A DNA stretch of 51,759 nucleotides from Escherichia phage vB_EcoD_Fulano1, in sequence record OL539459.1. The stretch is one strand, 5' to 3'. Below are positions 22,480-47,127 of the stretch, piece after piece (positions within the stretch are counted from its first letter, which is position 1; the number at the start of each line of letters is the position of its first letter). The notes under the pieces were generated by a model. The model was not told the origin of the DNA and did not search any database. It was given only the letters and a program-made list of their open reading frames with translations. The position numbers and the translations under genes were made by a program.

Positions 22480-22560
22480 ACAGCACAAATAGCTAAACAA
22501 ATGAAAAATGCGGTGTTATAATTCACCGCATAAGTTAACAACAAGCGTAAGGAAATAAAC

Positions 22561-22839
22561 ATGGAAAACAAACAAGTGTCAGAGGTGGCAGTTCATATCA
22601 ATAATTTTGCAACTGGCATGGCTATGTTGCTTCGTGACTTTGTAGCGCCGCTTGATCCAACGGCAGGCGCAGAAGAAATGGAGTACATCAGAAAAGTAAT
22701 GGATGCAGTCGATAACGTCGTACTTGTTGCAACAATGAGCGAAGACAACGAGGAAGCAATCAAGGCGGTAAAAGAAAGTTCTGATCGCATGATGGAAAAT
22801 CTGATTAAATTACACACCAAAGAAGAAACAAAACATTAA
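22561..22839 (+). CDS. hypothetical acidic protein
   Basis: 92 aa, Asp/Glu-rich, between exonuclease and erf. Confidence 0.4.
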   Translation: MENKQVSEVAVHINNFATGMAMLLRDFVAPLDPTAGAEEMEYIRKVMDAVDNVVLVATMSEDNEEAIKAVKESSDRMMENLIKLHTKEETKH

Positions 22840-22848
22840 CAGCAATAA

Positions 22849-22864
22849 GGCGGCGAAAGCCGCC
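22849..22864 (+). other. GC hairpin with GAAA tetraloop (no T-run)
   Basis: GGCGGC-GAAA-GCCGCC between 22561..22839 and erf. Confidence 0.4.
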
Positions 22865-22884
22865 ATTAATTACGGGAATTAATC

Positions 22885-23541
22885 ATGAAACTATCAGAGC
22901 AATTCGACAAGGTTTTACCAGCACTGCATAAGGCGCGTAGTTTGTTTGTAAAAGTGAAGAAGGATAAGCAAAACACGCACCTTAAAAACCGTTACGCGAC
23001 ACTTGATGCCGTACTTGATGCAATCACTCCAGCATTGAATGATAACGAGCTAATGTTGATGCAGGACATGATTGAAAGCGAACAACCTAACAGAATCAAG
23101 GTTGAGACAACAGTTCTTCATGTTTCCGGTCAGTGGGTGAAATTCTACGCAGAGCTACCAATAGTTAAAAACGATCCTCAAGGTGTAGGATCTGCATTCA
23201 CATACGCGCGTCGTTATGCAGCAGCCGCAGCATTTGGCTTAAGCCAGGCAGACGATGACGCACAGATTGCCGTTAAATCTGCAAACGACTGGAAACGTGA
23301 CATTGAGAAATGCGAAAGCGTAAACGAATTACAAGAAGTGCTTAAATCAGCATGGAAGGCAAGCGATCCGGCAAGCAAACAGGTAATTAAAGAGCATTAC
23401 GAAAAACGCAAGGCAGAGCTTGAGATAGGCAAAGCACGAGGATTTAATCCAGCGCAACCAAAGAAAAATCTTGCCTCGCCAGAAGTTGACACAAAAAACG
23501 ACGAGCAAGTAAAATCACAAAGTATCACTGATTTTGAATAA
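22885..23541 (+). CDS. erf: Erf-family single-strand annealing protein
   Basis: motif [24 protein letters not shown] matches the conserved core of P22 Erf-family proteins. Confidence 0.65.
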
Positions 23542-23585
23542 TTGACATGGGGCGCTTGCGCCCATTTCTTACAGGAGTATAAAAC

Positions 23586-24047
23586 ATGCATATTATTACT
23601 GGTGAGATCCGAAAAGAGCCGCGAGTAAAGCAAATGCCTAACGGCAGCACACTTTATGTGGTTGAACTTTCAGAGCGATACAAAGATAAAGATGGAAACT
23701 GGCAATATACAAACTACAGTTTCTTTTTTAATGCAAAAACTGACGGACTTAATGGTTTGTATGCTGAGGCGTTCCAGGTTGGCAAGGTTATTTCTGTTTC
23801 TTGTGACACCCTGCGCATTGAAACGCGAGAATACAACGGAAATCTGTATTCAAGTTTAATGCCAGGAGGATTTGCAAATCTTATCTTCAGTCAGCGCGGG
23901 GAAAGCCAGCAACAATATCAGCAGCGAACGCAAGGAGGATGGGGACAACCACAACAACAGAATCAACCGCAACAACCGCAACAACCGCAACAGCCAAGAC
24001 AAAGCAATCAGCCTCCTATGGACTTTGACGACGACATCCCCTTCTGA
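23586..24047 (+). CDS. ssb: single-stranded DNA-binding protein
   Basis: OB-fold-sized N-terminal domain, Gln/Pro-rich linker and C-terminal DFDDDIPF identical to the canonical SSB acidic tail. Confidence 0.9.
   Translation: MHIITGEIRKEPRVKQMPNGSTLYVVELSERYKDKDGNWQYTNYSFFFNAKTDGLNGLYAEAFQVGKVISVSCDTLRIETREYNGNLYSSLMPGGFANLIFSQRGESQQQYQQRTQGGWGQPQQQNQPQQPQQPQQPRQSNQPPMDFDDDIPF
23964..23990 (+). repeat. perfect 9-bp tandem repeat (CAACCGCAA)x3 inside ssb linker
   Basis: three exact copies encode QPQQPQQPQ. Confidence 0.8.
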
Positions 24048-24052
24048 TCAAC

Positions 24053-24076
24053 AAAGGGGCATTACGCCCCTTTTTC
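24053..24076. terminator. bidirectional intrinsic terminator
   Basis: stem GGGGC/GCCCC then T5; between ssb and convergent leftward gene. Confidence 0.7.
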
Positions 24077-24319
24077 ACTTTCAGCCATTCCAAGAACAGC
24101 AATCACCTTAACAGCAATTCTCTTTGCGAGTTCAGTTTGATGAGCGTTAAGTTTTCCAGTGGTCATTATTGACAGCATTCCGCTCATACTTCCAAGCCCG
24201 TTAAAATCTGACATTGCCGATTTCATAATTGATATTGGTGAGTGACCCTCACCAGCTATTGTGTGCGCTCTCTCTGAAAGGTCTTTAACTACCTGATCAA
24301 TTCCTTCACTTTTCGTCAT
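24062..24319 (-). CDS. hypothetical protein
   Basis: 85 aa ORF, last gene of leftward block. Confidence 0.35.
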   Translation of the reverse strand: MTKSEGIDQVVKDLSERAHTIAGEGHSPISIMKSAMSDFNGLGSMSGMLSIMTTGKLNAHQTELAKRIAVKVIAVLGMAESEKGA

Positions 24320-24797
24320 TTGCTTTTCCTTCAGGAGTTGATTGCTGTCCTGGCATTACAGGCCACGGGCTAATTGATTCCCTTTCTGCTACTGGCTTTT
24401 CAGGTTCAATTCCTAAAAACTTTCCTACAAAATCACCAACAAAATTTGAGCTATCGCTTACATAAACATGCATCCTGTCTAGATCTGCAACAGTAACGCT
24501 ATTTGGTGCGATCATGATCCTCTGTTGGTGAAAACCGATATACATCACATTAGCCGGACGCTCAAGAGTTCCCATATTTGGCGCAATTACGCCCATTATC
24601 CAACAATAATGAATGTTGCCATCAAGCGGCTCACATCCAGCGTTAAGCCAGTTTACTTTCTGGTGTGGGAATGCCATTGATGAATCAGTAGCATCACGCC
24701 GCAACGACCATTTAACGCCTCCAATCTCAATGATTTGTTTTGGCCTCATTCCGTTGAATTGAGTCACGCCAGCGCCATTTTGATTAATGTTTTGCAT
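24306..24797 (-). CDS. hypothetical protein
   Basis: 163 aa ORF, no motif recognised. Confidence 0.4.
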   Translation of the reverse strand: MQNINQNGAGVTQFNGMRPKQIIEIGGVKWSLRRDATDSSMAFPHQKVNWLNAGCEPLDGNIHYCWIMGVIAPNMGTLERPANVMYIGFHQQRIMIAPNSVTVADLDRMHVYVSDSSNFVGDFVGKFLGIEPEKPVAERESISPWPVMPGQQSTPEGKANDEK

Positions 24798-24811
24798 ATC
24801 GGTTCACCTTG

Positions 24812-25135
24812 TTACATTGATTTCATTTTACGCAATGCGCAGATACAAGCGGCAGCAAGATCGGTTAATTCTTTCTCAATGCCATGATGCGAGCCGTCTG
24901 CCTTTTCGGTCATTAGCTCTTTGTACTCCATTTCTACAATCGACATTAAGCCGCCAGACTTGTCAATGTGCGCGTCCCAGGTCTTAGGATAGTGCTTAGT
25001 TCTTTCAATAACACTTCCCATAACTGCATCATGTTCATGATCTCGATCATAATCTTTATCATGGCCATTTCCTCCAATTACTACTCGCGGCAAATGCACG
25101 CGCGGTAAATGATAGCCAGCGACAAGAATTTTCAT
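24812..25135 (-). CDS. hypothetical His-rich protein
   Basis: 107 aa, HLPRVHLPRV repeat and HDKDYDRDHEHD cluster; RBS AAGGGGA; terminator immediately upstream. Confidence 0.4.
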   Translation of the reverse strand: MKILVAGYHLPRVHLPRVVIGGNGHDKDYDRDHEHDAVMGSVIERTKHYPKTWDAHIDKSGGLMSIVEMEYKELMTEKADGSHHGIEKELTDLAAACICALRKMKSM

Positions 25136-25150
25136 GAGTATATCCCCTTA

Positions 25151-25176
25151 TAAAAAAGCGCCCCGAAAGGCGCTTG
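25151..25176 (-). terminator. intrinsic terminator (minus strand)
   Basis: minus strand AGCGCCTTTCGGGGCGCT then T6; between glycine-rich ORF and next gene. Confidence 0.6.
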
Positions 25177-25181
25177 GTTTA

Positions 25182-25559
25182 TTAGCAGCCGCAACAGCCA
25201 GTAGGCGGAGTCTGCGGAGTAGGCAACTTGAAGTTTACCAATTGCTCTACCTGGTTGATTTTGCAATTCAGTGCGGCTGTCTGGTTTGCCTGAGATAGAG
25301 CAAATCGCGCCTCCTGCAACTGAGCTTTCATATCGCAAATCAAAACAGCCTGAGAATCAGCAAACTGTTGGCGCATCAGATCTCGCGTTGCATTGCCTTG
25401 TCGCTCAATATTCAGGTTTGTCTCACAGCAACATCTCTCCGATGCAATTTGTGCCTGATAGGAACGCTCAAGAGCATTAACATCAGCAGCATTAATCGCA
25501 GCAACTGTCTGGTTAGTACCGCTAACAATCGCGGTATTCAGTCCGGCGAAACCTTGCAC
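25182..25559 (-). CDS. glycine-rich / Cys-cluster protein; true start unresolved (frame open to 25889)
   Basis: ORF track gives GTG 25559; same frame stays open and codon-periodic upstream to stop at 25890-25892, with RBS AAGAGGA (25869-25875) but no in-frame ATG/GTG/TTG. Confidence 0.4.
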   Translation of the reverse strand: MQGFAGLNTAIVSGTNQTVAAINAADVNALERSYQAQIASERCCCETNLNIERQGNATRDLMRQQFADSQAVLICDMKAQLQEARFALSQANQTAALNCKINQVEQLVNFKLPTPQTPPTGCCGC

Positions 25560-25992
25560 CGATGCAAGCAGGTTTTGCGTATTCTGGCTGGTAATGCCGT
25601 TAAAGGTTGATGCGGCGGAGCGCTCAACGGTAAGGTTTGTGGAGTTTTGGCCTTGCAGAGTTTGCAGCCCCAGGTTGTTTACGCCTGTCTGGATGTTATT
25701 AATACCATCAAGAACAGCGTTAGCACCGACAGCAACAGCAGCACCATCACCACCATAACCACCACGACCATTAAAGCCGTTACCAAACCATGACCCAATC
25801 AGGCCGCCAACAGCACCGCCAAGACCAGCCGCGCCAGCTTCGCCACCAAAACCACCACCAAGTAAATTCCTCTTTGACGTTAAAAAAAATTAAAAAAGTT
25901 TGCAACATTTATGTTACGACAAAGAGTATGCGCCAAATTACCAGGAATAGATATGAAACATTTGTAAGCGATATGTCAGCAAATGGCATAAA

Positions 25993-26024
25993 GACGAAAA
26001 AAGGCGCAGCCGTAGCCGCGCCTT
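25993..26024 (-). terminator. intrinsic terminator after side tail fibre gene
   Basis: minus strand stem AAGGCGC/GCGCCTT then T6. Confidence 0.6.
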
Positions 26025-26038
26025 GTGATTATTTTTTG

Positions 26039-27898
26039 TTAACTCTCAAGAGTTGTAGGCTTGTTGATCAATGCAGAAACAGCCGCTTTCAGTTCTTCAA
26101 CCTCCTTTTCAAGTTTTGATATTCTTTCTTTGTTTTCAACGTCACGCGCACGTAGAGCCTTTATTGCAGCTAGACCATCCATCAGCAGCGGATTAATGTC
26201 AAGAGTCATAATTCCAGATACAGAATCGCTATGAACATACTCCCTATCTATCATCATGGCATCTTGAGCTATTATTCCGCGTCTTGCGCTCCTTTCGTTG
26301 CTATCAAATGTATACCTAAATAATTTGAAGTTCATCCTTGATATATTATCAAGCGCGCATTCAACATTAAGATTTCCTTTAACATCTTTGAATCTAATAT
26401 CAGACGTTCCAGACTTCTGTAATGTGTTCCACGGCGTAGTTGTTTTTGCTACCTTCGGATCTCCTGTATTGTTATATCTAGTGTATGCATTCCCTGCCGT
26501 ATCAATCCAGAATTGAAATATCCTGTATTTATCATAGGATGATTGAAAACCGCCTCCATTTGTAGCAGCCCACGTAGTAAGACCTTCATTATCACTTATA
26601 AACTGACATCCGGAGTTTGTTATATCATTAGCAAGGTTTTTTACTTGACCAACTCCATATTTTGATGCTACAGGATGCCAAACCCAACCACTCCACCTCC
26701 ACGAATCAGAAACCTTGTCATAACTCCTTGAATAGTAAGATGGATCGTCAATAGGGTAATAATATTGATTTGCCTGTTCCGATCCGTTTGCTGTGGAGCT
26801 TGTAACCAGAAGAACACCGGCTTTTTGTACTGGATAGTTATTTTGAGGAGTTGCGTTAGCATTTGCACCCTGATAGTAATAACCAAAATTACTATAACCA
26901 TATAAGTCATTTAGGTTTCCGCTTAATACACCTCTTTGCTGCCTCATTAAATTTAGGTTGTCTCTTACCGACTCGACTGATTTTGATCCTGTTCCTCCTT
27001 TGCTTATCGGCAAAGCTATATCACTCTGTGATGTAGAATCCCACACACCCCAATTGCCATCATTTTTTACAAAAATTCGTTTTGTTCCATCAGCACTTGA
27101 AACAGCAGTCTCTCCAGATGCACCAGTGCCCTGCACCAACCTGTCTACGCTTAGGTTTTTTCTTGCTTCACCTTTATCTGCAACATCGCTAAGGTTGTTG
27201 TTTTTGTTAAGCATATTTTCCGGATTTATGCTATCTGCATATTCTTTCGCCTTATCTTCAGAAGCCTTAGCGGCATTTTTTGATGTCAGGGCGTCAGAAG
27301 CAGATCTGGCAGCTTCGCTTTTGCTTGTATTAGCCGCGATTTCAGAGTTTTTTGCATTAGTCTCTGACGCCTTTGCTGCGATCTTGCTCGCGTTGGCTGC
27401 GTTTTCTGACTCTTTGGCTTTAGTCTCTGACGCTTTTGCTTCGTTCTTTGAATTAAGCGCATCAGAGGCAGATCTTGCTGCGGCATCCTTACTTTGATTC
27501 GCAGACGCTGCGTTTTCTTCCACCTGTTTAGCCAAATCCTGATAATGCTTCCAATCAAACGTCTTAAAAAATTCCAGCGCTTCCCCGATCTCTGATTCTT
27601 TACTCTGATAGTAGCGCAATGTTTCAGCTACATCTTGAGCAAGCCCATCAACAGTTATTGAGTCATGAAGCAAGATTGCGTAATTTGAGCGAGTAACTAC
27701 CGCACCTCCAGTTGTAATTGCACGAATGCTTGTATCGTTGATAACTTCAGTTATTACAGCGATTTGTAACGGCTGAGTTAAGAATACAATGGTCGCACCA
27801 GGGCGAATGAGTGTTAGTTGCTCTCGCCATTTTGTGTCGTATCCAGTGATATAACCTTGTGCGTCCATTGACGCTTGTCCGGTTCTGTAAATTGCCAT
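26039..27898 (-). CDS. side tail fibre protein with C-terminal intramolecular chaperone-like domain
   Basis: trimmed to ATG 27898 behind GGGAGA; Ala/Ser/Lys repeat shaft, Trp/Tyr-rich distal domain, C-terminal coiled coil. Confidence 0.6.
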   Translation of the reverse strand: MAIYRTGQASMDAQGYITGYDTKWREQLTLIRPGATIVFLTQPLQIAVITEVINDTSIRAITTGGAVVTRSNYAILLHDSITVDGLAQDVAETLRYYQSKESEIGEALEFFKTFDWKHYQDLAKQVEENAASANQSKDAAARSASDALNSKNEAKASETKAKESENAANASKIAAKASETNAKNSEIAANTSKSEAARSASDALTSKNAAKASEDKAKEYADSINPENMLNKNNNLSDVADKGEARKNLSVDRLVQGTGASGETAVSSADGTKRIFVKNDGNWGVWDSTSQSDIALPISKGGTGSKSVESVRDNLNLMRQQRGVLSGNLNDLYGYSNFGYYYQGANANATPQNNYPVQKAGVLLVTSSTANGSEQANQYYYPIDDPSYYSRSYDKVSDSWRWSGWVWHPVASKYGVGQVKNLANDITNSGCQFISDNEGLTTWAATNGGGFQSSYDKYRIFQFWIDTAGNAYTRYNNTGDPKVAKTTTPWNTLQKSGTSDIRFKDVKGNLNVECALDNISRMNFKLFRYTFDSNERSARRGIIAQDAMMIDREYVHSDSVSGIMTLDINPLLMDGLAAIKALRARDVENKERISKLEKEVEELKAAVSALINKPTTLES

Positions 27899-27951
27899 GC
27901 GTTTTCTCCCATGTTGCATGTTAATGTCAATGCAGATAATAGCATTTGCTA

Positions 27952-27980
27952 AGGCCAAAAAAAACCCCGCAATGCGGGGT
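27952..27980 (-). terminator. intrinsic terminator (minus strand)
   Basis: minus strand CCCCGC-ATT-GCGGGG then T9. Confidence 0.75.
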
Positions 27981-27996
27981 AAAGTAGCAGTGACAT

Positions 27997-28929
27997 TTAG
28001 AGAAGTGATTCAGGCTTGTAAACCTTTCTCTCCATCCCTTGCCTGTAATTATCATTAATCGGCATCATAATTTCAAGTCCTCTTTCCTCTGCGGCAATGA
28101 TCGAGTCACGGTCTGTACTCTTACAGACAACTCTCATTCTTCTGTTTCCCTTATACCTGTAAGCCACAATCTCAATGTTAGTTGCATCAAAGCAGGCCCA
28201 AACCTCTTGACCAGTTGCAAGGTGAATATGTTGCGCATCAATCCAGTCAACGCAAAGATAGATCGTCTTATCGGTGCTTCCTGTTCTCACAACCGACCCG
28301 CGCGTGTAGTCCTTTGCGAGAAAAGACTGTTTACCATCTTCATCAATGAAAAGCACATTGCACATTTCATCATCAATATCATCGGAATGCACCAGGTAAC
28401 ATGGTAACGCGTGAATGTATCGACCATCTTTAACGCCGCATTCATAATAACCATTTTCAGGAGGATATATCCCTTCATAGGTGCTTAACGGCGTGCGATC
28501 AAATTTTAGTGTTTTTGACATAACGCGCTCGCAGCATTCATGGCTTGCCTGCTTCCCAAACGAATAACCAGAATCACGAGATACTCTCTTATTTGCCTTG
28601 ATCCTATAGTCCTGCGGAACTTTTCCAAGAAAGCGGCCCAAAATATTGATCACTTCGCTGTAAGGTTCTCCGGTTAGCTTCATGATCCAACCAATTCCAG
28701 TATCGTTTCCGCACACATTGCAGATAGCGCCGCCGTCGCCTTTTTTATCTCCAAGTTTATCAGTCCATCTAAAGCGATCCTTTCCGCCGCAGTGGGGGCA
28801 AGATTGATGCTTGCCGTTAAAAACTTCATTTGGAAGACCACAAATACTTTGTAGCGCCTCACGCCATAATCCCTGCATATATGGGAGAACATCTTCCTTT
28901 TGATAAACCATAAAGTTTTCGTTATTCAT
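27997..28929 (-). CDS. putative DNA primase (zinc-ribbon containing)
   Basis: trimmed to ATG 28929 behind GAGGTG; Cys cluster CPHCGGKDRFRW...CNVCG; acidic stretch HSDDIDDE. Confidence 0.45.
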   Translation of the reverse strand: MNNENFMVYQKEDVLPYMQGLWREALQSICGLPNEVFNGKHQSCPHCGGKDRFRWTDKLGDKKGDGGAICNVCGNDTGIGWIMKLTGEPYSEVINILGRFLGKVPQDYRIKANKRVSRDSGYSFGKQASHECCERVMSKTLKFDRTPLSTYEGIYPPENGYYECGVKDGRYIHALPCYLVHSDDIDDEMCNVLFIDEDGKQSFLAKDYTRGSVVRTGSTDKTIYLCVDWIDAQHIHLATGQEVWACFDATNIEIVAYRYKGNRRMRVVCKSTDRDSIIAAEERGLEIMMPINDNYRQGMERKVYKPESLL

Positions 28930-28984
28930 ATACACCTCAAACAAAAAAGCCTGACAGATGATAACATCATGCCAGGCATTGTTT

Positions 28985-29458
28985 TTAGCAATTAGTGCTT
29001 TCAGGTTTATACAGGAATCCGCCAGGTTCATAATCTGACATTCTTACCACTCGCAACATTTCACGCTTATCACATCTCTTTGTGAGCGGTTTGCCATTGG
29101 AATCAAATCGCAGGTCTGGACGACAGAATGATGCGCGATAGCCTTGACATCCATATTTTTTGTAATCGTTATGCACCTTTTGAGCGCCAGCGGCTGAAAT
29201 CATACCACGAACGCGCCACTGATTTACAGTTTGCTGGCTAACGTTAAGACGTTTTGCCATTGCTGACACGCTTCCGTAATACTCAATAAGGATGTCAAGT
29301 CGCGCTTTTAGTCCGGCGCGCACTTCATCTTTTAAAACATAGTATCCCGTAGGGCGCTTGCGCTTCTTCTTGTCCTTGCCTCTTCGAGTTCCGTTATTGC
29401 CATTAATTGTGCGCTTGTCAATCTTTCCTGTTGATACTGCGATTCGTTGCTCTTTCAT
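28985..29458 (-). CDS. HTH DNA-binding protein (putative regulator)
   Basis: 157 aa; basic N-terminus RRGKDKKKRKRP; helix-turn-helix-like MAKRLNVSQQTVNQWR; divergent from helicase gene. Confidence 0.5.
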   Translation of the reverse strand: MKEQRIAVSTGKIDKRTINGNNGTRRGKDKKKRKRPTGYYVLKDEVRAGLKARLDILIEYYGSVSAMAKRLNVSQQTVNQWRVRGMISAAGAQKVHNDYKKYGCQGYRASFCRPDLRFDSNGKPLTKRCDKREMLRVVRMSDYEPGGFLYKPESTNC

Positions 29459-29471
29459 TATTCATTCTCCA

Positions 29472-29518
29472 ATAGCATTTTTTGTTAAACGATGATTTAA
29501 TGATTGTGTATTATACAC
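29472..29518 (+). promoter_or_regulatory. helicase promoter region: recurrent element plus 13-bp palindrome GTGTATTATACAC
   Basis: ATAGCATTTTTTGTTAAAC 29472-29490; perfect palindrome 29506-29518 overlapping -10-like TATTAT. Confidence 0.45.
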
Positions 29519-29547
29519 GCCAAATGGCATTACTCAAAGGTTTTAGA

Positions 29548-31593
29548 ATGATTCCAAACATTGAAAAGCAAATATCAGCACTTGGTGAAGCGGTAATTAA
29601 ATCCATTCAGGAGCGATTCACTGTTGGAGAGATTGTGCCTTACCCTTACCAGTGCGTTGCATACGCTGAGATCGCAAAGCGTATGAAAAATTATGAGCAT
29701 CCATTCTTTGTTAAAGCGTCGGTATCGGCTGGCAAAACATTGATGTTTGCAATGGTTGCTCACCAGTGCCGTAAAATGGGCTTGAAAATGATGGTCCTTG
29801 CTCGCCAGGCTGAGATTGTGGATCAGGATTCTGAAGAGATAACAAATCTTGGCGTGCCGAACTCTATCTATTGTGCAGGACTGAAGACAAAAAGCGCATA
29901 CTTTCCGATCGTTGTTGGTTCTGAGGGAACTGTAGTTAATGGACTGTTTAAAGCGCTTGGCGACTATGTTCCGCACGTTATCGGGATTGACGAGTGTCAC
30001 CAGGTGGATTGGGAAGACCTTGCCGACGCAATAGAGAAAGACGAATCATTTTTACAAATGACGACGAAGAAAGGCGAAAAAGTACCAAATCCAGATTATG
30101 ACATAACAAAGGGAAGCAGGAACAGAAATACAGAGTTCCTGATTGGTGAGGATGGCTTGCCAATGGAGGGAACAGGCCGCACACAATACACTGTCATTAT
30201 CATGGAAATGATGCGACGTTGCAGGAAAGCATATGGCCATGAACTGCGCATATTTGGCATGACTGGATCGGAGTTTCGCGGTGTAGTCCCAATACTGGTA
30301 GAAGATAAAAAGCAGAAAGGATTTTGGCGTGAACAGGTTACTAATATTGACACCAACTACCTGATCAAGTTCGGTTCTGTTGTTCCGACTAATTTTGGCG
30401 ACGTTGGCGATCTCGGGTATGACCTTTCAGAGTTTGAGGCATCAAGCGAGGATGGCGTTGCAGACTTTGACGCTAAAACGCTTCGTAGGATGGAACAAAA
30501 AATTCATGAAGAAGCGACCATGACAAAGCGCATCATGGCGAAAGTGCACGAGATCTGTAAAAACCGTAACGGTGTACTTGTGACATGTGCAGGCGAAAGG
30601 CACTGTAAAGAGGCAGCGGCAGCATTGCCACCTGGAACGACTTACAGGATCATTACTGGTAAGACTGGAGATAACCAGCGAAAGGAGTGGTTGAAAGAAG
30701 CATACGAGGGGAAGGTTAAATACATCTTCCAGGTGCAGGCGCTAACTACTGGCGTTAACGTGCCGTTTTGGGATACGTCTGTTATTCTGCGTAAGATTGG
30801 ATCTCTTACGTTGCTGATTCAGCTTTTAGGGCGCGGAATGCGACTACTTAAGAAGTGGCATAAGGAGCAAGGATTCCAGAAAGATGATCATCTCGTCATG
30901 GATTTTTCAGGAACGATGGACGAGCTAGGGGAGCTTTATTTTGATCCGATACTGGAACAGGCGCAGCATCAGAAGCGATTCAGAAATGGTAAAGATCCGA
31001 AGCCTTGTCCTGTTTGCGGAACTCTTAACAGCTATTATGCTCGTCGTTGTATGCACGTAGACGAAAACGGCAACAGATGCGAGTGGTTCTTTAAATTCAG
31101 GACATGTGATGATCAGATTGACCCGCGCACTAAAAAGATTATTCATCGCGGTTGCGGAACGAAGAATGATATTGCGGCCAGGGTATGCAGACATTGCGAC
31201 ATGTCATTGATTGACCCCAACGAGAAGTTAAGCGGAAAGCACTACACAAAAAACGACTGGTTCCAAGTGCAATCTTTCGCGGTTAACATGACGAAAAACC
31301 AGAAAGGGATAATATTTAATTATGAGCTTTCCGATGGCATAGATACTTTCAAGGCGAGAGAGATATTTTTCCCTGAATCTGAAAGCCAAATTTGTCGCGC
31401 AAAATGGCGAAGCGTTGCTCTTAAGCACATACCAGATCGCCGTGTCGCTGGCATGGTCGCGAGCTATCGTAATGCACGAAAAATAATGCAGTATGTGAAT
31501 CACATTATGCCACCATCGCGCGTTACTCACCGCAAGACTAGCAAGGGCGAAGATAATTTGTACAAGAAGGAATTTAATTATGGCAATGACTGA
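29548..31593 (+). CDS. SF2 DNA helicase (DEAH-like)
   Basis: Walker A SVSAGKT, motif II GIDECHQV, C-terminal Cys clusters; start ATG 29548 (RBS AAAGG) chosen, ATG 29524 possible. Confidence 0.7.
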   Translation: MIPNIEKQISALGEAVIKSIQERFTVGEIVPYPYQCVAYAEIAKRMKNYEHPFFVKASVSAGKTLMFAMVAHQCRKMGLKMMVLARQAEIVDQDSEEITNLGVPNSIYCAGLKTKSAYFPIVVGSEGTVVNGLFKALGDYVPHVIGIDECHQVDWEDLADAIEKDESFLQMTTKKGEKVPNPDYDITKGSRNRNTEFLIGEDGLPMEGTGRTQYTVIIMEMMRRCRKAYGHELRIFGMTGSEFRGVVPILVEDKKQKGFWREQVTNIDTNYLIKFGSVVPTNFGDVGDLGYDLSEFEASSEDGVADFDAKTLRRMEQKIHEEATMTKRIMAKVHEICKNRNGVLVTCAGERHCKEAAAALPPGTTYRIITGKTGDNQRKEWLKEAYEGKVKYIFQVQALTTGVNVPFWDTSVILRKIGSLTLLIQLLGRGMRLLKKWHKEQGFQKDDHLVMDFSGTMDELGELYFDPILEQAQHQKRFRNGKDPKPCPVCGTLNSYYARRCMHVDENGNRCEWFFKFRTCDDQIDPRTKKIIHRGCGTKNDIAARVCRHCDMSLIDPNEKLSGKHYTKNDWFQVQSFAVNMTKNQKGIIFNYELSDGIDTFKAREIFFPESESQICRAKWRSVALKHIPDRRVAGMVASYRNARKIMQYVNHIMPPSRVTHRKTSKGEDNLYKKEFNYGND

Positions 31594-31999
31594 TAAAGGC
31601 GATTATCTGGAGTTTTACGAAAGAGATCCGACAGATACACTAAAAGAAGAATCGCACCAGATAGGCGCGTTTCAATGGGTAACTTATGCTCATCCTGAAT
31701 TACTGGCATGGCATACGAAAAACGAGGGCGACAAGGGGATCGCCACCGCAATGATGGATCAGCAAGCTGGGCTTGTTAAGGGCGTAAGTGATTTTATCAT
31801 CCTGATTGGATTAAAAGGTCGTTACCCGTTCGCGGCAATTGAGATGAAGCGCGTCAATAAGTCCGGCAAGGGTAAGGCTTCACCAGTCAGCAAGGACCAA
31901 AAAGCCTTCTTGCGTCGTGTGCGTGAGCTTGGCGGATTCGCTGCCGTAACATACGGATATAAGCAATTCATGATCGCGGTAGAATACATGATGAAATAG
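31580..31999 (+). CDS. VRR-NUC domain nuclease
   Basis: 139 aa; PD-(D/E)xK-like core GVSDFIILIG ... AIEMK. Confidence 0.55.
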   Translation: MAMTDKGDYLEFYERDPTDTLKEESHQIGAFQWVTYAHPELLAWHTKNEGDKGIATAMMDQQAGLVKGVSDFIILIGLKGRYPFAAIEMKRVNKSGKGKASPVSKDQKAFLRRVRELGGFAAVTYGYKQFMIAVEYMMK

Positions 32000-32015
32000 C
32001 ACTTTTTGTTAAAAC
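31996..32015 (+). promoter_or_regulatory. recurrent element ATAGCACTTTTTGTTAAAAC
   Basis: overlaps stop TAG of 31580..31999; hairpin 32017-32034 then CATAAT 32034-32039. Confidence 0.45.
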
Positions 32016-32073
32016 AGGCGCGAAGGATTGCGCCATAATAACACCAGTTCAACAAGCAACAGGTAATTAAGAA

Positions 32074-32779: not shown

Positions 32780-33037
32780 ATGCAGAAAGAAAGAAGAGTT
32801 TTACTTAATGAAGATGGCGAATTTCTTTTGTATCGCGCTATGGTATGCGATGCAATTGATAAAAACCCTAACGTGAAAAAGATGATTGATTGCGATCCGT
32901 GGGAATTTTCAAGCGCATTAGATATGAGCTTTGAGGAGACAAAAAAACTCCCGCTTGAAAAATGGCACGAACAAATCAGAAATGACATGCAAGAATTTGT
33001 CGATTCTTGGAATTTTCAGAACGGAATGATCCACTAA
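32780..33037 (+). CDS. hypothetical protein
   Basis: ORF track 32432..33037 trimmed to ATG 32780 to remove overlap with dam. Confidence 0.4.
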   Translation: MQKERRVLLNEDGEFLLYRAMVCDAIDKNPNVKKMIDCDPWEFSSALDMSFEETKKLPLEKWHEQIRNDMQEFVDSWNFQNGMIH

Positions 33038-33056
33038 TAGCACTTTTTGTTAAAAC
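33037..33056 (+). promoter_or_regulatory. recurrent element ATAGCACTTTTTGTTAAAAC
   Basis: directly after stop TAA 33035-33037; hairpin 33057-33075 then CATAAT 33075-33080. Confidence 0.45.
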
Positions 33057-33112
33057 GCCCGGCCTTGTGTCGGGCATAATTATTTCATCAAAACGAACAA
33101 GAGGAAAACAAA

Positions 33113-35590: not shown

Positions 35591-35989
35591 ATGAGAAAGC
35601 TATCAGCAATCGCGATCGCTGTTATTTTGTCTGGATGTTCAAGCGTTATGCCACTGACCGGATTAATCGGTAGTAAGCCGGAAATCACAGCACAGGCAGG
35701 AGCGGAGAACGTAAAGCAGACCGTTGGCGTTACCGCAAAGCAGGACACCAGCACGAAACAGGAAACTACAATAAAGGAATCTGCGGTTGATAAGGTGGAC
35801 ACTTCCAGCAAGAAGGATTTCACTACGTCAACCATTCAGGCTAACACCATCAAGGCCGATAAAATCCAGGTCGTGCAGGGGGAGCAAAGGAAGTGGTACG
35901 ATCCTATAATCTATTGCGCTGCAATTTTCAGTGGTCTTTTGACTATGCTTTACTTTTCCTACCGCAAAGATAACAAAAAGGAGGCTTAA
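35591..35989 (+). CDS. unimolecular spanin (u-spanin)
   Basis: lipoprotein signal MRKLSAIAIAVILSGC plus C-terminal transmembrane helix; architecture of the T1 gp11 u-spanin. Confidence 0.7.
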   Translation: MRKLSAIAIAVILSGCSSVMPLTGLIGSKPEITAQAGAENVKQTVGVTAKQDTSTKQETTIKESAVDKVDTSSKKDFTTSTIQANTIKADKIQVVQGEQRKWYDPIIYCAAIFSGLLTMLYFSYRKDNKKEA

Positions 35990-36004
35990 CGCCTCCTTTG
36001 TTAT
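35980..36004. terminator. bidirectional terminator after lysis cassette
   Basis: stem GGAGGC/GCCTCC, T-rich on both sides. Confidence 0.55.
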
Positions 36005-37028: not shown

Positions 37029-37502
37029 TTATCCCCCGTGATTTTTGTGATAGCCAAGTTTTTCTTCTGCTAGTTTTCTTGCGTCTATAGCGTCACTTAT
37101 ATCTAAAAATCTCCCAAGATGTTTTATTCCATTATCTGTCTTTATCTGCGCCTTCCACTTGCCAGAGTAATTATCAAAGTAAACGCCAGTTACACCAGAT
37201 CTATTATTTTTTGATCTTGATTTGTTTTTACTATTCTCCTTGCATGTTACAAGCCTCAAGTTTTCTATCCTGTTATCGGTTCTTATGTGATTTATGTGAT
37301 CTATCTGCATTCCATCAGGAATATCTCCGTTAAACATTTCCCAAACTATCCTATGCACTCTCCTGAATCTATATCCTACATTAACCTGCAAGTATCCATC
37401 AGGTAGCATCCTACCAGCAGGCTCTCCAGCCTTGACGCGACCATAACTACGCTTCCAACGAAGTATTCCATTGTCATAATCAAAAACATCATGCCAATTC
37501 AT
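37029..37502 (-). CDS. HNH homing endonuclease, copy 2
   Basis: paralog of copy 1: NGILRW, HRIVWEMFNG, IDHINH...DNRIENLRL. Confidence 0.75.
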   Translation of the reverse strand: MNWHDVFDYDNGILRWKRSYGRVKAGEPAGRMLPDGYLQVNVGYRFRRVHRIVWEMFNGDIPDGMQIDHINHIRTDNRIENLRLVTCKENSKNKSRSKNNRSGVTGVYFDNYSGKWKAQIKTDNGIKHLGRFLDISDAIDARKLAEEKLGYHKNHGG

Positions 37503-39090: not shown

Positions 39091-39143
39091 TGATGATAAC
39101 TCCTTTTTTGATGCGGCAATAATACCGCACCAATGCTACCCGC

Positions 39144-39162
39144 ATTTAACAAAAAATGCTAT
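39144..39162 (-). promoter_or_regulatory. recurrent element ATAGCATTTTTTGTTAAAT
   Basis: overlaps stop TAG of HNH copy 3; hairpin with TATTAT loop; then RBS AAAAGGAG and ATG 39090. Confidence 0.45.
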
Positions 39163-39659
39163 ACGCCATGATTCTTGTGAAATGAGAAATCTTTCTGAGC
39201 TGTTTTTCTGGCAGTTTCTGCTTCATGTATCGACTCATACCGCCCTAAACTTACGTTTTTACCATTAATTTGAATTTGTGCCCTCCACTTTCCAGTTTGT
39301 TTGCAGAATGTAACTCCAGTCACCCCGCTTGAATTATTTATCTGAACAGACTTGTTCATATTGTTTTCAAGCCTTGTTACCAGCCTTAGATTTTCAATCC
39401 TGTTGTCTGCGCGATTGTGGTTAATGTGATCAACCTCCATGTTTGGCGGAATGTCTCCATTGTGCATAATCCAAACAATTCTATGCGCCAGGTATTTCCT
39501 GCCAAAAATACCAATAGAAATATACCCATTACCTTTTTCGCAGCCAGCTATGAAACCTATTTTATTCTTCTTTCCTGTATTGACCCTCCATATCAAATAT
39601 CCATCTTTGTATTCAAACAGCCTCAAAAGTATTTCGCTTGAAATTTTGCAGTTGCACAT
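39159..39659 (-). CDS. HNH homing endonuclease, copy 3
   Basis: HRIVWIMHNG, VDHINHNRADNRIENLRL, AP2-like tail; RBS GGAGGG. Confidence 0.75.
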   Translation of the reverse strand: MCNCKISSEILLRLFEYKDGYLIWRVNTGKKNKIGFIAGCEKGNGYISIGIFGRKYLAHRIVWIMHNGDIPPNMEVDHINHNRADNRIENLRLVTRLENNMNKSVQINNSSGVTGVTFCKQTGKWRAQIQINGKNVSLGRYESIHEAETARKTAQKDFSFHKNHGV

Positions 39660-40006: not shown

Positions 40007-40062
40007 CGTTTATTTCTCCTTTCGTTTCGGTGAAGTGATTATGCCAGGCTTTTACACCTGGC

Positions 40063-40081
40063 TTTTAACAAAAAGTGCTAT
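40063..40081 (-). promoter_or_regulatory. recurrent element ATAGCACTTTTTGTTAAAA
   Basis: overlaps stop TAG of methyltransferase gene; hairpin GCCAGG..CCTGGC then CATAAT then ATG 40006. Confidence 0.45.
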
Positions 40082-41407: not shown

Positions 41408-41462
41408 TATGCAATCCTCATTATATTTGGTGTGGTAACTATACCAAGTTTTCGAAATATTG

Positions 41463-41480
41463 TTTAACAATTCGTGCTAT
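41463..41480 (-). promoter_or_regulatory. recurrent element, GAATT variant ATAGCACGAATTGTTAAA
   Basis: ~21 nt upstream of TATAGT; TATAAT + GAGGA precede ATG 41407. Confidence 0.4.
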
Positions 41481-42057: not shown

Positions 42058-42113
42058 TTTTAAATCCTCGTTCGTTGTCGATGCGCATAATATACCAATC
42101 AGAGGCGCATCGG

Positions 42114-42132
42114 TTTTAACAAAAAGTGCTAT
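42114..42132 (-). promoter_or_regulatory. recurrent element ATAGCACTTTTTGTTAAAA
   Basis: adjacent to stop of 42133..42399; hairpin 42079-42112 with TATATTAT loop; then ATG 42057. Confidence 0.45.
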
Positions 42133-42399: not shown

Positions 42400-42412
42400 C
42401 TTTGTTTCTCCT

Positions 42413-42927: not shown

Positions 42928-42975
42928 TGCTATCTCCTGATGGCTATCTCGTTTCGATGAGATAACTATACCAGG

Positions 42976-43549: not shown

Positions 43550-43578
43550 TTGACTACCTGGCTGTGAGTATTGATAAT
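43550..43578 (+). promoter_or_regulatory. sigma70-like promoter TTGACT-17-GATAAT for rightward early operon
   Basis: TTGACT 43550-43555, GATAAT 43573-43578, 33 nt before ATG 43611. Confidence 0.55.
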
Positions 43579-43610
43579 GCACGCAGACAAAACGAAAAGG
43601 GAGACAGCAC

Positions 43611-43910: not shown

Positions 43911-43921
43911 GGAGTAAGAGA

Positions 43922-44383
43922 ATGGAGCAAGAATTTATTAACCGCGCGGCATTTTGCGACACGTTGCGAGATATTGGAAGGGCTATCGGTAGCGGTGAGC
44001 GAGAAACCGTATTTATGCCTGAAATCTACCTGAGAAGTCGAGTTGAGGGGGGCGACGCAATTACAGCATCGTACATGCGCCAGGTGGTCAACCGTGTGCC
44101 AGAAGTAAAGCAAAAAGGCGTGATCAGCATTAAGCGAAAGGTGACTGATGAGGGTGATGGCTTTGTGTTTACGCTCACTGAAGCCAAAAGCAAGCCTCGC
44201 GTGCTGACTGGAGACGATATAGCGAAACTTGAAATCAAGTGGCGAGCAAAGTTTATTGCTCAACTTCTGAAAACCCAGCCGAGAATCAGCGACCTGGAAG
44301 GCGAGCGCCTGGAGGGTGCGGCAATCGCACTTGAGAGAATGAATGAAATGCTCAACGAGATGGTAAAGGTGGGGGATGAATAG
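43922..44383 (+). CDS. hypothetical protein
   Basis: 153 aa, RBS AAGGAG. Confidence 0.4.
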   Translation: MEQEFINRAAFCDTLRDIGRAIGSGERETVFMPEIYLRSRVEGGDAITASYMRQVVNRVPEVKQKGVISIKRKVTDEGDGFVFTLTEAKSKPRVLTGDDIAKLEIKWRAKFIAQLLKTQPRISDLEGERLEGAAIALERMNEMLNEMVKVGDE

Positions 44384-44649
44384 TGAATAAGGCATTAATT
44401 GGAGTTTTGATTGCAATTGCTACCCTGACCGGATGCGAAAAGGCATCTGAATCAACGGTAGTCGTAGGCGTGGAGTCAGATTTTAAAGTCGGTCGCCTGT
44501 TTACTGTTGATGGATGCACTGCGTACCGATTCTATGATAACGGTCACGCGATCTATTACACCAACTGCAAGGGCACGACTAGCTGGGAAGTGTCGAAAAG
44601 CAACGGCAAGGTAACGACAACAGAACATATGACAGTGGAGACAAAATAG
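44383..44649 (+). CDS. lipoprotein (signal peptide near-identical to Cor-like gene)
   Basis: GTG start overlapping previous stop; MNKALIGVLIAIATLTGC lipobox. Confidence 0.5.
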   Translation: MNKALIGVLIAIATLTGCEKASESTVVVGVESDFKVGRLFTVDGCTAYRFYDNGHAIYYTNCKGTTSWEVSKSNGKVTTTEHMTVETK

Positions 44650-44665
44650 CACTTTTTGTTAAAAC
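44646..44665 (+). promoter_or_regulatory. recurrent element ATAGCACTTTTTGTTAAAAC
   Basis: overlaps stop TAG of lipoprotein gene; CATAAT 44684-44689. Confidence 0.45.
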
Positions 44666-44744
44666 TCAAAAACGATAACCAGGCATAATAAATCACATAG
44701 GGCGGCACGGCGTCGCCCAGTTAAACCAATCAGGAGAAAGCACC

Positions 44745-45638
44745 ATGTTAAAACTTGCTGACATTAAATTCCCGATCACTTTCGAATCTCGTGGCGTTGG
44801 TCATTACATTTTTACAGATGAGAAAACATGCCATAACGTTTGGTTGCACAGCGATAAGCCAAGCCCATCAAAAATGGAGATTCAGCACTTCATTGATGCG
44901 CATAATCAGCACTACAACTCAATCCGTGACTACGGCTACGCAATGCCAGGCTACACATGCTTGCACTACAAGCCATATAAGGGCCAGGTGTTACCAGTGC
45001 GCTCACCGGAACGCGCAGAGATTCCGATGGTCAATATGAAAACCTGCGACTACAAAAAGCTGTGGTGCTTAAGTCTGGACAATATCAAGTATCCGATCAC
45101 GTTCCACACGACTGGTAAGTCAACGATTCGCTACACATCGCGCGACAATGGCGTTTATAGCGATGGTACGAAATCAGAGTTGAAAGTTGATTTCTTTGTC
45201 AACGGTCACAACAAATTCAATCCGCACAACGAAGAGGATAAAGTGTACTACGTGGAAGATATTACAAAACACTTGTTTGGCGAAACTCCATTCGGCGGCG
45301 GGAAGACGTCAATTCAAAAAATCATTGGCGAGGAGATCCACAAGGCAGCCGCTGAAATGAAAGCACCAGGAGGCTGGCGTATTGATAAGAGCGCAATTTC
45401 CTATCAAGAAATCGTAACGCAGGGCGCTATTGAAGACATGCCAGTTGCCGCCACGCTAAAAGGCGTTCAGCTTGATGACGGCGTGTGGTATGAATTAACG
45501 GCTAAGCCAAAGACGATCGAGATTCATGATGATGTTGTTATTCTTCTGCTTCATTACGGTAGCGCAAAAAACCGTGCCGTTGCGGGTGAGATTAGCATCA
45601 AGCGCGGAACGATGGTTAAGTGGAAGGTTAAGGTGTAA
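44745..45638 (+). CDS. hypothetical protein with internal tandem duplication
   Basis: 297 aa; LADIKFPITFESRG and LDNIKYPITFHTTG repeat units. Confidence 0.45.
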   Translation: MLKLADIKFPITFESRGVGHYIFTDEKTCHNVWLHSDKPSPSKMEIQHFIDAHNQHYNSIRDYGYAMPGYTCLHYKPYKGQVLPVRSPERAEIPMVNMKTCDYKKLWCLSLDNIKYPITFHTTGKSTIRYTSRDNGVYSDGTKSELKVDFFVNGHNKFNPHNEEDKVYYVEDITKHLFGETPFGGGKTSIQKIIGEEIHKAAAEMKAPGGWRIDKSAISYQEIVTQGAIEDMPVAATLKGVQLDDGVWYELTAKPKTIEIHDDVVILLLHYGSAKNRAVAGEISIKRGTMVKWKVKV

Positions 45639-45658
45639 ATAGCACGAATTGTTAAAAC
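45639..45658 (+). promoter_or_regulatory. recurrent element, GAATT variant ATAGCACGAATTGTTAAAAC
   Basis: follows stop TAA; TATAAT 45676-45681 in loop of GGCC stem. Confidence 0.45.
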
Positions 45659-45711
45659 TCAAATGTGGGGCCAGGTATAATGGCCTCACTTTCAACGAAG
45701 GAGATAAAACG

Positions 45712-45916
45712 ATGTACATTATCAAGAAGATGAAATGCGTTTCCGTTAATTATTGTTGTGCTGGAATGTTCAAGCCTAGCGAAATCTATACGGCGCAAAA
45801 ACTGAATCTTTTTACGTGAGCAATAGTAAGGGGCATCGCATGTTCCTGAACGGCGGCGAAGGCACTAAGGTTATGGCACACGCTATGGTAATGGCTGAAT
45901 TTGAGGAGGTGAAATA
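45712..45916 (+). pseudogene. frameshifted paralog of 45917..46150
   Basis: ORF 45712..45819 (35 aa) and -1 frame 45780..45916 together align to the downstream protein; frames meet at A5 run 45797-45801. Confidence 0.35.
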
Positions 45917-46150
45917 ATGATCATCGAAAACAACTTTCTTTGCGTTAAGAGCAATCGACCATTCTTCACGCCTGGCAAGGTGTACCAGGGCAAGAAGGAC
46001 ACAAGAGATGGTCACTCTTATCATGTTCACTGCAACAACGGATACAAGTTTTACCTCAACGGTAATAATGGAACTGAGATTGTTGCGTTTGAAAACGTAA
46101 TTGCCGAGTTCGAGCAGATTACAGACGCGGAATTTGAGGAAGTGAAATAA
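45917..46150 (+). CDS. hypothetical protein
   Basis: 77 aa, RBS GAGGAGG. Confidence 0.4.
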   Translation: MIIENNFLCVKSNRPFFTPGKVYQGKKDTRDGHSYHVHCNNGYKFYLNGNNGTEIVAFENVIAEFEQITDAEFEEVK

Positions 46151-46152
46151 TC

Positions 46153-46362
46153 ATGGATCAGAACAAAACAGCAAAATATAAATTCACTGACGACTACGGA
46201 GACACTATCGACGTTTATCAGCGTGGGAATCAGATCTTTATCGATGGCACTTTCGAATATGGCCGGATGCCAGACTTTCGGGGAATACTTTCGGCAGATA
46301 GCGCGCGACGCATGGCGAACGTGTTAAATAAACTGGCGGCAAAGATTGAGGCGATGCAATGA
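46153..46362 (+). CDS. hypothetical protein
   Basis: 69 aa ORF. Confidence 0.4.
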   Translation: MDQNKTAKYKFTDDYGDTIDVYQRGNQIFIDGTFEYGRMPDFRGILSADSARRMANVLNKLAAKIEAMQ

Positions 46363-46898
46363 AAAAATACACTTTCGAACTATGGGGCAATAAGTACGAA
46401 TTTACGACAAGCAAGCCTATTGTTGTGTGCGATCTCGACGGCACGCTATCGGACGGATCGCATCGTTTGCATTTGCTGCCAAATGAAAACTTGCACCTTA
46501 CGGAATCGTGGCGCGAGTTTAACAGGGCCGCCGCCGGAGATTCACCGATTAAAAGCACTATCGCGGTTATTAACGGTTTATGGGTGTCGGGATTTGCCAT
46601 CGTCATCTTGACCGGACGCAGCGACGAGGTTCGCTATGAAACCTGCAAATGGTTGAATGAGAACGGCGTGAAGTTTGACGAAATCATCATGCGCCGCCAG
46701 GAGGACAACCGAAAGGATACTGTTATTAAAGAAGAAGCCTTGCGCGCTATTGGCCTGGACAATATTGTTTGCGCCTTTGACGATTCGCCGAGCGTGGTTA
46801 AGCACTTCCGCAGCTTGGGGATCACAACCTATCAGGTCACGGAATACGACAAGCCACACGCTCACATACAATCTCACGGCGTGGATGAATTGAAATGA
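46359..46898 (+). CDS. HAD-family phosphatase (polynucleotide 3'-phosphatase-like)
   Basis: motif I VVCDLDGTL, motif II ILTGRS, motif IV FDDSPS. Confidence 0.6.
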   Translation: MKKYTFELWGNKYEFTTSKPIVVCDLDGTLSDGSHRLHLLPNENLHLTESWREFNRAAAGDSPIKSTIAVINGLWVSGFAIVILTGRSDEVRYETCKWLNENGVKFDEIIMRRQEDNRKDTVIKEEALRAIGLDNIVCAFDDSPSVVKHFRSLGITTYQVTEYDKPHAHIQSHGVDELK

Positions 46899-47056
46899 CC
46901 TGGTTACTTTTAATCTTTGTCACAAGTTACAATTCCGCCGCTATTGAATCGCAAGAGTTCCACGGCGAATCAAGATGCCAGGAAGCACGAAAACAAGTTG
47001 TTCTCCACATGTCAGATAGTGGGAAAGATGTAACAGCGCTATGCGTTCGTAAATAG
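46895..47056 (+). CDS. hypothetical small protein
   Basis: 53 aa ORF not in track, ATGA overlap with phosphatase stop, hydrophobic N-terminus. Confidence 0.25.
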   Translation: MTWLLLIFVTSYNSAAIESQEFHGESRCQEARKQVVLHMSDSGKDVTALCVRK

Positions 47057-47072
47057 CACTTTTTGCAAAAAC
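47053..47072 (+). promoter_or_regulatory. recurrent element ATAGCACTTTTTGCAAAAAC
   Basis: overlaps stop TAG of small ORF; TATAGT 47091-47096 in hairpin loop. Confidence 0.4.
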
Positions 47073-47127
47073 ACATTATCGGGCTTGCGGTATAGTAAGC
47101 CCATCGACAACAAGCGAGGATTAAATC

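Follow-up and report, generated by a model that had tools for sequence, protein, structure and literature searches.

A repeated cassette with the layout of a promoter

The DNA of Escherichia phage vB_EcoD_Fulano1 (record OL539459.1; 51,759 nucleotides (nt), hereafter the window) contains a cassette that recurs 18 times and joins a conserved 20-mer, a hexamer resembling the -10 element of sigma-70 promoters and, in 11 of the copies, a GC-rich hairpin that encloses or abuts this hexamer. Judged from its sequence, the window is the genome of a T1-like virulent siphovirus close to Hanrivervirus. The region 22000-30000 is 95% identical (megablast) to Escherichia phages grams, damhaus, JakobBernoulli and others, and phage grams is classified in its record under Drexlerviridae, Tempevirinae, Hanrivervirus. 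The late structural genes occupy the plus strand from about 500 to 20700; between about 20700 and the end of the window, the early and DNA-metabolism genes are grouped in several clusters, some on either strand.

An earlier note on this DNA had reported that -10-like hexamers lie in the loops of GC-stemmed hairpins, or directly behind them, in many intergenic regions. All of its examples belong to the one repeated cassette, which consists, in this order, of the 20-mer ATAGCACTTTTTGTTAAAAC, a variable spacer, a TATAAT-like hexamer, a C-rich stretch, a conserved CA, a conserved leader, and the start codon. The 20-mer has 14 copies in the window at three mismatches or fewer, against 0.01 expected, and looser searches raise the number to 18; these include one of the examples of the earlier note, at 22,480, whose box reads ACAGCACAAATAGCTAAACA. 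The spacer between 20-mer and hexamer is variable in sequence and 18 nt long (17 nt in five copies), and the start codon follows about 31 nt past the hexamer. Of 14 cassettes measured, 13 have the start codon 72-81 nt from the 20-mer, and the one at 44646 has it at 99 nt. Sixteen of the 18 cassettes are co-oriented with the next gene; the remaining two are reversed and lie in the late region.

The cassette is also present in relatives. A set consisting of an IMG/VR scan with a 19-mer (120 loci), three fetched reference genomes, and the window, together 1.19 megabases (Mb), contains 559 cassettes, which reduce to 493 unique and 186 non-redundant ones. The hexamers at the fixed offset in this set are TATAGT (105), CATAAT (79), TATTAT (63), TATAAT (23), and others. 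If the conserved A, a predicted start, is numbered +1, the 20-mer extends from about -50 to -31 and the hexamer from -12 to -7, followed by a leader of about 25 nt with a Shine-Dalgarno sequence. The GCAC of the 20-mer is invariant (2 bits per position), columns -30 to -15 carry zero information, and conservation returns with G at -14 (80%), C at -1 (76%), and A at +1 (83%), the last two 7 nt past the hexamer. Because of the fixed distance to the upstream motif, the G(-14), and the conserved downstream C/A, the hexamers are read as true -10 elements, as the earlier note had proposed, and the cassette as a repeated promoter with predicted activity and a predicted start.

The leader (+1 to +25) is likewise conserved among paralogous cassettes, as CATCGAAACGAA..GAGGA or, in a second type, as CACACCAAC, and the promoter together with its leader appears to be a module that has been duplicated or homogenised as a whole. 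A viral contig of 174,436 base pairs (bp) (IMGVR_UViG_648019609_000001, locus L020), far longer than T1-like genomes, contains a single exact copy of the 19-mer.

The 20-mer as a probable marbox

The core of the 20-mer, GCACTTTTTGTTAAA, fits the MarA consensus gcannwwntgnnaaa of Grainger and co-workers (PMC12052159) at 15 of 15 positions, and its GAA, TAA, and AAA variants fit as well. The match is complete in 17 cassettes and has a single mismatch in one. Exact matches to the consensus number 18 in the window, against 1.6 expected, and 15-20 each in T1, grams, and KpV522; the negative control, the 49-kb genome of the unrelated Vibrio myovirus OZ195772, which has a helicase segment alone in common with the window, contains 2. 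The older 20-bp marbox consensus, AYnGCACnnWnnRYYAAAYn, also fits the phage 20-mer, at 19 of 20 positions.

In class II marbox promoters, as defined in PMC12052159, a forward box overlaps the -35 region, is centred between -36 and -55, and accompanies a poor -35 and a good -10 element (PMC9178005, PMC9638938, PMC8811837, PMC12052159). The phage cassettes combine hexamers of a good -10 family and G(-14) with a TTGTTA located 22 bp from the hexamer, i.e., a poor -35 with a good -10. A canonical sigma-70 assignment of the -35 was rejected, as TTGTTA and TTAAAA lie 22 bp and 19 bp from the hexamer instead of the 16-18 bp needed. A generic sigma-70 scan misses the cassette promoters because the TTG sits 22 bp from the hexamer; 22494-22522 is the sole one listed.

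A host counterpart is micF, where the A site GCAC and the B site CAAA are centred at -41.5 (PMC9638938) and where the E. coli K-12 sequence reads GCACTGAATGTCAAA, 20 nt, TAGAAT. The distance from marbox core to hexamer is the same 20 nt in the phage cassettes (19 nt in a minority). The phage GCAC is located at -47 to -44 relative to the predicted start, and Rob contacts -47G and -45A in the micF complex. The MarA site at xseA/guaB (reverse complement GCATTTTTTGCAAAA) is nearly identical to variants of the phage 20-mer. As far as its letters tell, the cassette is built like micF and other class II sigma-70 promoters that depend on an activator, with activation as its predicted mode of use. Host Rob, MarA, or SoxS would most likely bind and activate the cassettes; the alternative is an unrecognised phage protein of the same specificity.

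A phage protein of this type did not emerge from the searches: there is no AraC-type helix-turn-helix (HTH) domain among 21 of the approximately 77 phage open reading frames (ORFs) scanned with Pfam, and tblastn with MarA and SoxS sequences gave a best E-value of only 0.6 in four T1-like genomes. The annotated phage 'transcriptional regulator' was considered as a MarA-like activator and rejected, as it is a Cro/YdaS-type HTH protein.

The 20-mer might instead represent a UP element or the target of a phage activator or repressor, and the hairpins unrelated terminators. Stoperators, enhancer sites, and UP-like elements have been offered as readings of the corresponding repeat in phage TLS (PMC11447400), and the Cro/YdaS-type HTH regulator is encoded beside two of the cassettes. 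Moreover, A(-48), T(-40), and other positions are more conserved in the phages than the host consensus requires, which leaves room for a different binder and, like the lack of any genetic evidence that ties Rob, MarA, or SoxS to the growth of T1, speaks against a host activator. A link of T1-like phages to MarA/SoxS/Rob or to the marbox was not found in the literature searched. However, the invariant GCAC does not suit an A/T-rich UP element, which leaves it without explanation and was rejected for this reason; the motif lacks the palindromic form of the sites that dimeric Cro-type proteins bind; and the complete marbox fit, the exact micF spacing, and the negative searches for AraC-type proteins (21 of the approximately 77 ORFs by Pfam, and tblastn) all argue for the marbox. 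That the 20-mer is something other than a host marbox site is rather unlikely but deserves to be kept in view.

Hairpins at two positions of the cassette

The 11 hairpin-bearing cassettes of the window, folded as RNA in 40-nt segments, have z-scores of -2.6 to -5.2 against dinucleotide shuffles. The seven sites cited in the earlier note are all present as described: the two said to precede the hexamer (32017-32034 and 33057-33075) each end on the C of CATAAT, the minus-strand hairpin 39108-39133 has its TATTAT in loop and stem, and the stem at 45665-45689 extends to 9 bp. Four more, 28949-28977 and 40043-40062 on the minus strand and 48388-48408 and 49737-49774 on the plus strand, had not been listed. 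The bare pattern, a stem of 5 bp or more whose loop contains TAnnnT, is found also in coding sequence and is not special by itself; its regularity becomes significant when the repeated cassette is taken as the anchor.

Fortuitous inverted repeats in GC-rich spacers, an explanation that could draw on these generic hairpins of coding DNA, have next to no probability. When offsets 17-60 of each cassette were folded and compared with shuffles in which box and hexamer were held fixed, 90 of the 186 non-redundant cassettes (48%) were more stable than 95% of their shuffles, against 5% expected. Together with the anchoring on the 20-mer, this upholds the claim that the pattern is too regular for chance, as do the bimodal stem positions, the covariation, and the slid controls described below.

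The hairpin axes of the 186 cassettes are bimodal and define two classes. In class A (37-39 cases, depending on the folding run), a GC stem of 6-8 bp with a loop of 4-5 nt begins 0-2 nt past the 20-mer and takes up the 18-nt spacer, the first base of the hexamer being its last. In class B (51-53 cases, likewise by folding run), where the hairpin begins 5-12 nt past the 20-mer, the 3' portion of the spacer pairs with the end of the hexamer, the discriminator, and the first transcribed bases, and the loop holds the first half of the hexamer. In the class B hairpin 22508-22531, which has the gene of exonuclease VIII upstream, the arms ATGCGGTG and CACCGCAT enclose a loop with TTATAATT.

The stems vary among relatives in a compensatory manner, a test that the earlier note had set for its own proposal. 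Cassettes ahead of the same gene in different phages have different stems in the same place: orthologues of the cassette 39108-39162, which precedes a helicase gene, show three (GTGCGG/CCGCAT, GTTGACC/GGTCAAC, and GTTGCCG/CGGCAAC), and those of the cassette between the regulator and primase genes show five different terminator stems, the T1 orthologue being annotated as a terminator. Among orthologue pairs with less than 60% identity at the variable positions, hairpin presence is concordant in 65 of 98, against 51 expected (p 0.01). In the in-register subsets, 95.6% of the class A cells are paired (64% when shuffled), with 6 of 7 pairs changed on both sides, and 77% of the class B cells (58% when shuffled), against 20-44% in slid controls, but these alignments were made of sequences pre-chosen for folding on the respective axis; the unbiased tests are the shuffle test and the orthologue comparison.

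Several features of the hairpins differ between the strands. The sense RNA folds better than the antisense RNA in 62 cassettes and worse in 25 (p 2e-7), a ratio of 39 to 12 in class B alone. Internal stem mismatches are G·T or T·G in 27 cases and A·C or C·A in 8, and the 25 four-base loops include 10 GNRA or UNCG loops in sense and 0 in antisense. These signatures point to RNA structures made in the direction of the genes, not to cruciforms; as a cruciform needs both strands, strand-asymmetric wobble pairs and loops do not fit it.

The earlier note had considered that the hairpin occludes the -10 element. Control at the level of DNA, in which the inverted repeat would be extruded in supercoiled DNA and hide the -10 or render it single-stranded, yielding supercoiling-sensitive promoters, agrees with the fixed positions at which the inverted repeats flank or abut the -10, with the inclusion of the discriminator, melted during initiation, in the arms of class B, and with the missing U tract of class B, which termination explains poorly. 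It is nevertheless quite improbable. The stems are short (5-12 bp) and the loops 4-18 nt long, which is unfavourable for cruciform extrusion; the excess of G·T would place A·C mismatches on the complementary strand; stable loops and the more stable fold are on the sense side; and the hairpins of class A exclude the -10 altogether. A device intrinsic to the promoter would also have no need to follow the upstream gene, as the hairpins do: of the 127 cassettes that come right after a co-directional ORF, 79 have one, compared with 12 of the 53 others (Fisher p 1.4e-6). The four window cassettes without a co-directional upstream gene (6410, 10171, 20991, and 29472) have no strong hairpin.

The second proposal of the earlier note, a hairpin with which the cassette's own transcript begins and which serves to stabilise or process it, fares no better. 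Stem-loops at 5' ends are known stabilisers of mRNA, and two window cassettes (44646 and 43008) have hairpins that reach into the leader. Yet the 5' arms are located at -30 to -14 from the predicted start, and the hexamer with its -10 profile and conserved C/A 7 nt on places this start at or beyond the 3' arm in both classes, so a transcript from the cassette would lack the 5' arm and hairpin RNA would arise only from transcription entering from upstream. An alternative -10/-35 pair upstream of the hairpins is absent because the preceding gene occupies the sequence before the 20-mer. A 5'-end element is accordingly very hard to credit.

It is also improbable that the hairpins are terminators of the opposite strand, which would block antisense transcription through the early clusters. 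In antisense, the complement of the 20-mer, GTTTTAACAAAAAG, comes after the hairpin, and a terminator scan lists 32034-32017 and 22531-22508 as terminator-like on the minus strand. Class A is located directly at the 20-mer, its sense and antisense folds are about equally stable, and some of its stems extend into AAAAC/GTTTT, as those of bidirectional terminators do. By contrast, the GNRA/UNCG loops and G·U pairs favour the sense strand, the antisense T-run is not adjacent to class B hairpins, and the hairpins follow the upstream gene on the same strand.

The hairpins are probably terminator-like RNA structures that belong to the upstream transcript and occupy the only positions at which the sequence of an activator-dependent promoter is free; we infer that they function in RNA. 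A host-type activator at the marbox overlapping the -35 region would lead to sigma-70 initiation at C(-1)A(+1). The GC hairpins would have no part in promoter recognition; they would form in RNA arriving from the upstream gene and could stop, pause, or protect this transcript, shielding the promoter from read-through, whereas transcripts from the cassette's own +1 would lack the 5' arm and be unaffected. The intergenic space of approximately 75 nt is nearly filled with conserved signals, which leave only spacer and discriminator free to vary, and a hairpin of 18-25 nt fits in only two ways: inside the spacer (class A) or by pairing spacer with discriminator (class B). The simplest account of a hexamer in or next to the loop is that this packing leaves no other room. 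In agreement with an upstream origin, four hairpins of T1 cassettes and one of KpV522 are annotated as rho-independent terminators in GenBank. At 28949-28977 (minus strand), where TATCAT lies in the loop and a T run follows the stem, the sequence reads as a full intrinsic terminator with a promoter inside.

Other observations weigh against termination of the upstream transcript. Of the cassettes behind a gene, 38% have no hairpin, and 23% of those without an upstream ORF have one. In class A alone, the energy difference between sense and antisense is not significant, and the call for sense is based on the tetraloops; the tails owe a moderate U content to the hexamer itself (mean 3.2 T in 8 nt; at least 5 in 6 of 37). 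In class B, the tails are mostly without U (mean 1.1 T in 8 nt; fewer than 5 in 49 of 53 and none in 24 of 53), the hairpin usually being followed by ATCGAAACGA, with the regulator-primase site as an exception. Class B hairpins are not canonical intrinsic terminators; they may serve in polymerase pausing, in protection of the 3' end of the upstream message, or in capping the 5' end of a processed downstream message. Mapped transcript 5' or 3' ends of a T1-like phage were not found in the literature searched; a study of daunorubicin sensitivity in Drexlerviridae had no bearing here, and PMC2787020 offered nothing of use on class II spacing.

What the earlier note had seen is confirmed, and its interpretation stands in part: the pattern is not due to chance, the hexamers are -10-like, and the stems covary; DNA occlusion and the 5'-end element are not supported, and the shared cassette and its 20-mer had escaped it. 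On a wider scale, it is conceivable, if somewhat short of probable, that the early and DNA-metabolism genes run mostly from about 18 consensus class II marbox promoters that rely on the host stress activators Rob/MarA/SoxS and titrate them as the genome replicates, each fused to a hairpin that stops or caps the upstream transcript, and that the genome is a chain of insulated units of 1-3 genes. T1-like phages are classic and very common coliphages whose transcription programme is essentially unmapped. If the proposal is true, a virulent phage depends on regulators of antibiotic and stress resistance and could act as a sponge for them, which would link phage susceptibility to drug exposure. A terminator-like hairpin nested in the next promoter would be a compact design rule, useful for genome annotation and for synthetic insulated expression units.

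Individual cassettes and comparison with known systems

Table 1. Cassettes of the window in genome order, with hexamers, hairpins, and z-scores of the folded RNA.
Cassette	Position	Strand	Hexamer	Hairpin	z	Remarks
20-mer ATAGCATTTTTTGTTAAACG	6391-6410	-	none at cassette distance			marbox-like; opposed to plus-strand late genes; kept in T1 and KpV522
In late block	10121-10171	-	TAGCAT 10128-10133	none significant		20-mer 10152-10171
Before cor-like lipoprotein gene	20942-20991	-	TATAGT 20949-20954	none		20-mer 20972-20991; no co-directional upstream gene
One-mismatch marbox	22480-22531	+	TATAAT 22517-22522	class B, 22508-22531	-4.5	hexamer in loop
Between Cro-like regulator and primase genes	28939-29001	-	TATCAT 28958-28963	class B, 28949-28977	-5.2	20-mer 28982-29001
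Before helicase gene	29472-29521	+	TATTAT 29509-29514	weak, 5 bp only, 29506-29518		divergent from regulator gene
Before dam-like methylase gene	31996-32046	+	CATAAT 32034-32039	class A, 32017-32034	-3.2	hairpin fills spacer
	33037-33087	+	CATAAT 33075-33080	class A, 33057-33075	-2.6	one G·U pair; T-rich stretch after hexamer
Before 527-aa helicase gene	39108-39162	-	TATTAT 39119-39124	class B, 39108-39133	-4.3	
	40031-40081	-	CATAAT 40038-40043	class A, 40043-40062	-4.3	stop codon of upstream methylase gene within 20-mer
GAA variant	41431-41480	-	TATAGT 41438-41443	weak, 5 bp only, 41433-41446		
	42079-42132	-	TATATT 42089-42094	class B, 42079-42112	-3.2	8-bp outer stem; hexamer in 18-nt loop
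	42943-43008	-	TATAGT 42965-42970	none in spacer		GC hairpin 42943-42966 formed by discriminator and leader
	44646-44718	+	CATAAT 44684-44689	none in spacer		GC hairpin in leader, 44700-44718
GAA variant, 17-nt spacer	45639-45689	+	TATAAT 45676-45681	class B, 45665-45689	-4.0	
	47053-47103	+	TATAGT 47091-47096	class B, 47081-47102	-4.1	
GAA variant	48370-48420	+	TATAAT 48408-48413	class A, 48388-48408	-3.1	
	49718-49774	+	TAAAGT 49756-49761	class B, 49737-49774	-5.2	core of hairpin 49744-49767

The two reversed boxes of the late region may serve in the repression or timing of late genes. The box at 6391-6410 overlaps a possible plus-strand promoter, TTGCAC-16-TGcTATCAT, ahead of the major capsid gene. 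The cassette 10121-10171, which is kept in T1 and KpV522, faces a plus-strand terminator at 10090-10108 and could yield an antisense RNA of about 40 nt.

Two minus-strand ORFs with HNH_3 and AP2 domains (37029-37502 and 39159-39659) look like homing endonuclease genes; the stop codon of the latter overlaps the 20-mer 39143-39162. At 24053-24073, 25156-25175, and 35977-35999, symmetric arrangements of A-tract, GC hairpin, and T-tract at convergent gene junctions look like ordinary bidirectional terminators, distinct from the hairpins of the cassettes. About 20 GenBank records titled 'Campylobacter phage' (e.g., MG065636 and MG065649) are approximately 93% identical to this coliphage over 8 kb and are probably T1-like contaminants or mislabelled.

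Among the known systems with an inverted repeat at the promoter, the hairpin promoters of the phage N4 virion RNA polymerase and cruciform-regulated promoters depend on DNA structures, with defined short loops and, in N4, a phage polymerase. In the cassettes, stems vary and RNA-type wobble pairs occur in one orientation; a phage RNA polymerase gene is not annotated in grams, T1, KpV522, or TLS. The middle promoters of phage T4 have a MotA box in place of the -35 element, centred at -30, and are served by the phage proteins MotA and AsiA. Like the cassettes, they form a class of phage promoters in which a good -10 is combined, at fixed distance, with a conserved activator box in place of the -35; however, the box of the cassettes is a predicted host marbox with its centre at about -40.5, and a phage activator did not emerge from the Pfam scan of 21 ORFs or from tblastn.

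The rho-independent terminators and the 'transcripton' layout proposed for T1 (GenBank NC_005833) likewise place GC stem-loops directly after genes, and the hairpin 28949-28977 has the full U tract of such terminators. By contrast, most class B hairpins have no U tract, and terminator and following promoter overlap, so that the -10 hexamer forms part of the tail (class A) or is found in the loop (class B).

A 21-nt direct repeat, aaATAGCACnnnTTGnTAAAA, was reported in the 2024 re-annotation of phage TLS, where it has 18 intergenic copies approximately 76 nt before start codons; it is present also in T1, Rtp, and Rogue1, and the authors left its function as an open question (PMC11447400). The repeat of the phage studied here agrees with it in sequence and in its T, G, and A sub-variants. 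That paper is silent on the fixed -10 hexamer, the hairpins, and the marbox, and describes the repeat as intergenic and oriented along transcription, whereas two copies in the window are reversed inside late genes. The 20-mer repeat and some of the terminators had been described before; the marbox identity, the nesting rule across the family, and a virulent phage that uses the MarA/SoxS/Rob regulon did not turn up in the literature searched.

A further similarity is to the class II promoters of enterobacteria that depend on MarA, SoxS, Rob, or RamA, with which the cassettes share an asymmetric GCAC-8 nt-AAA box in forward orientation over a poor -35, a centre near -41, 20 nt from core to hexamer, and a good -10. 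The host boxes are degenerate and single, whereas the predicted phage sites match the consensus, number 15-20 per 50 kb, and are each joined to a conserved leader.

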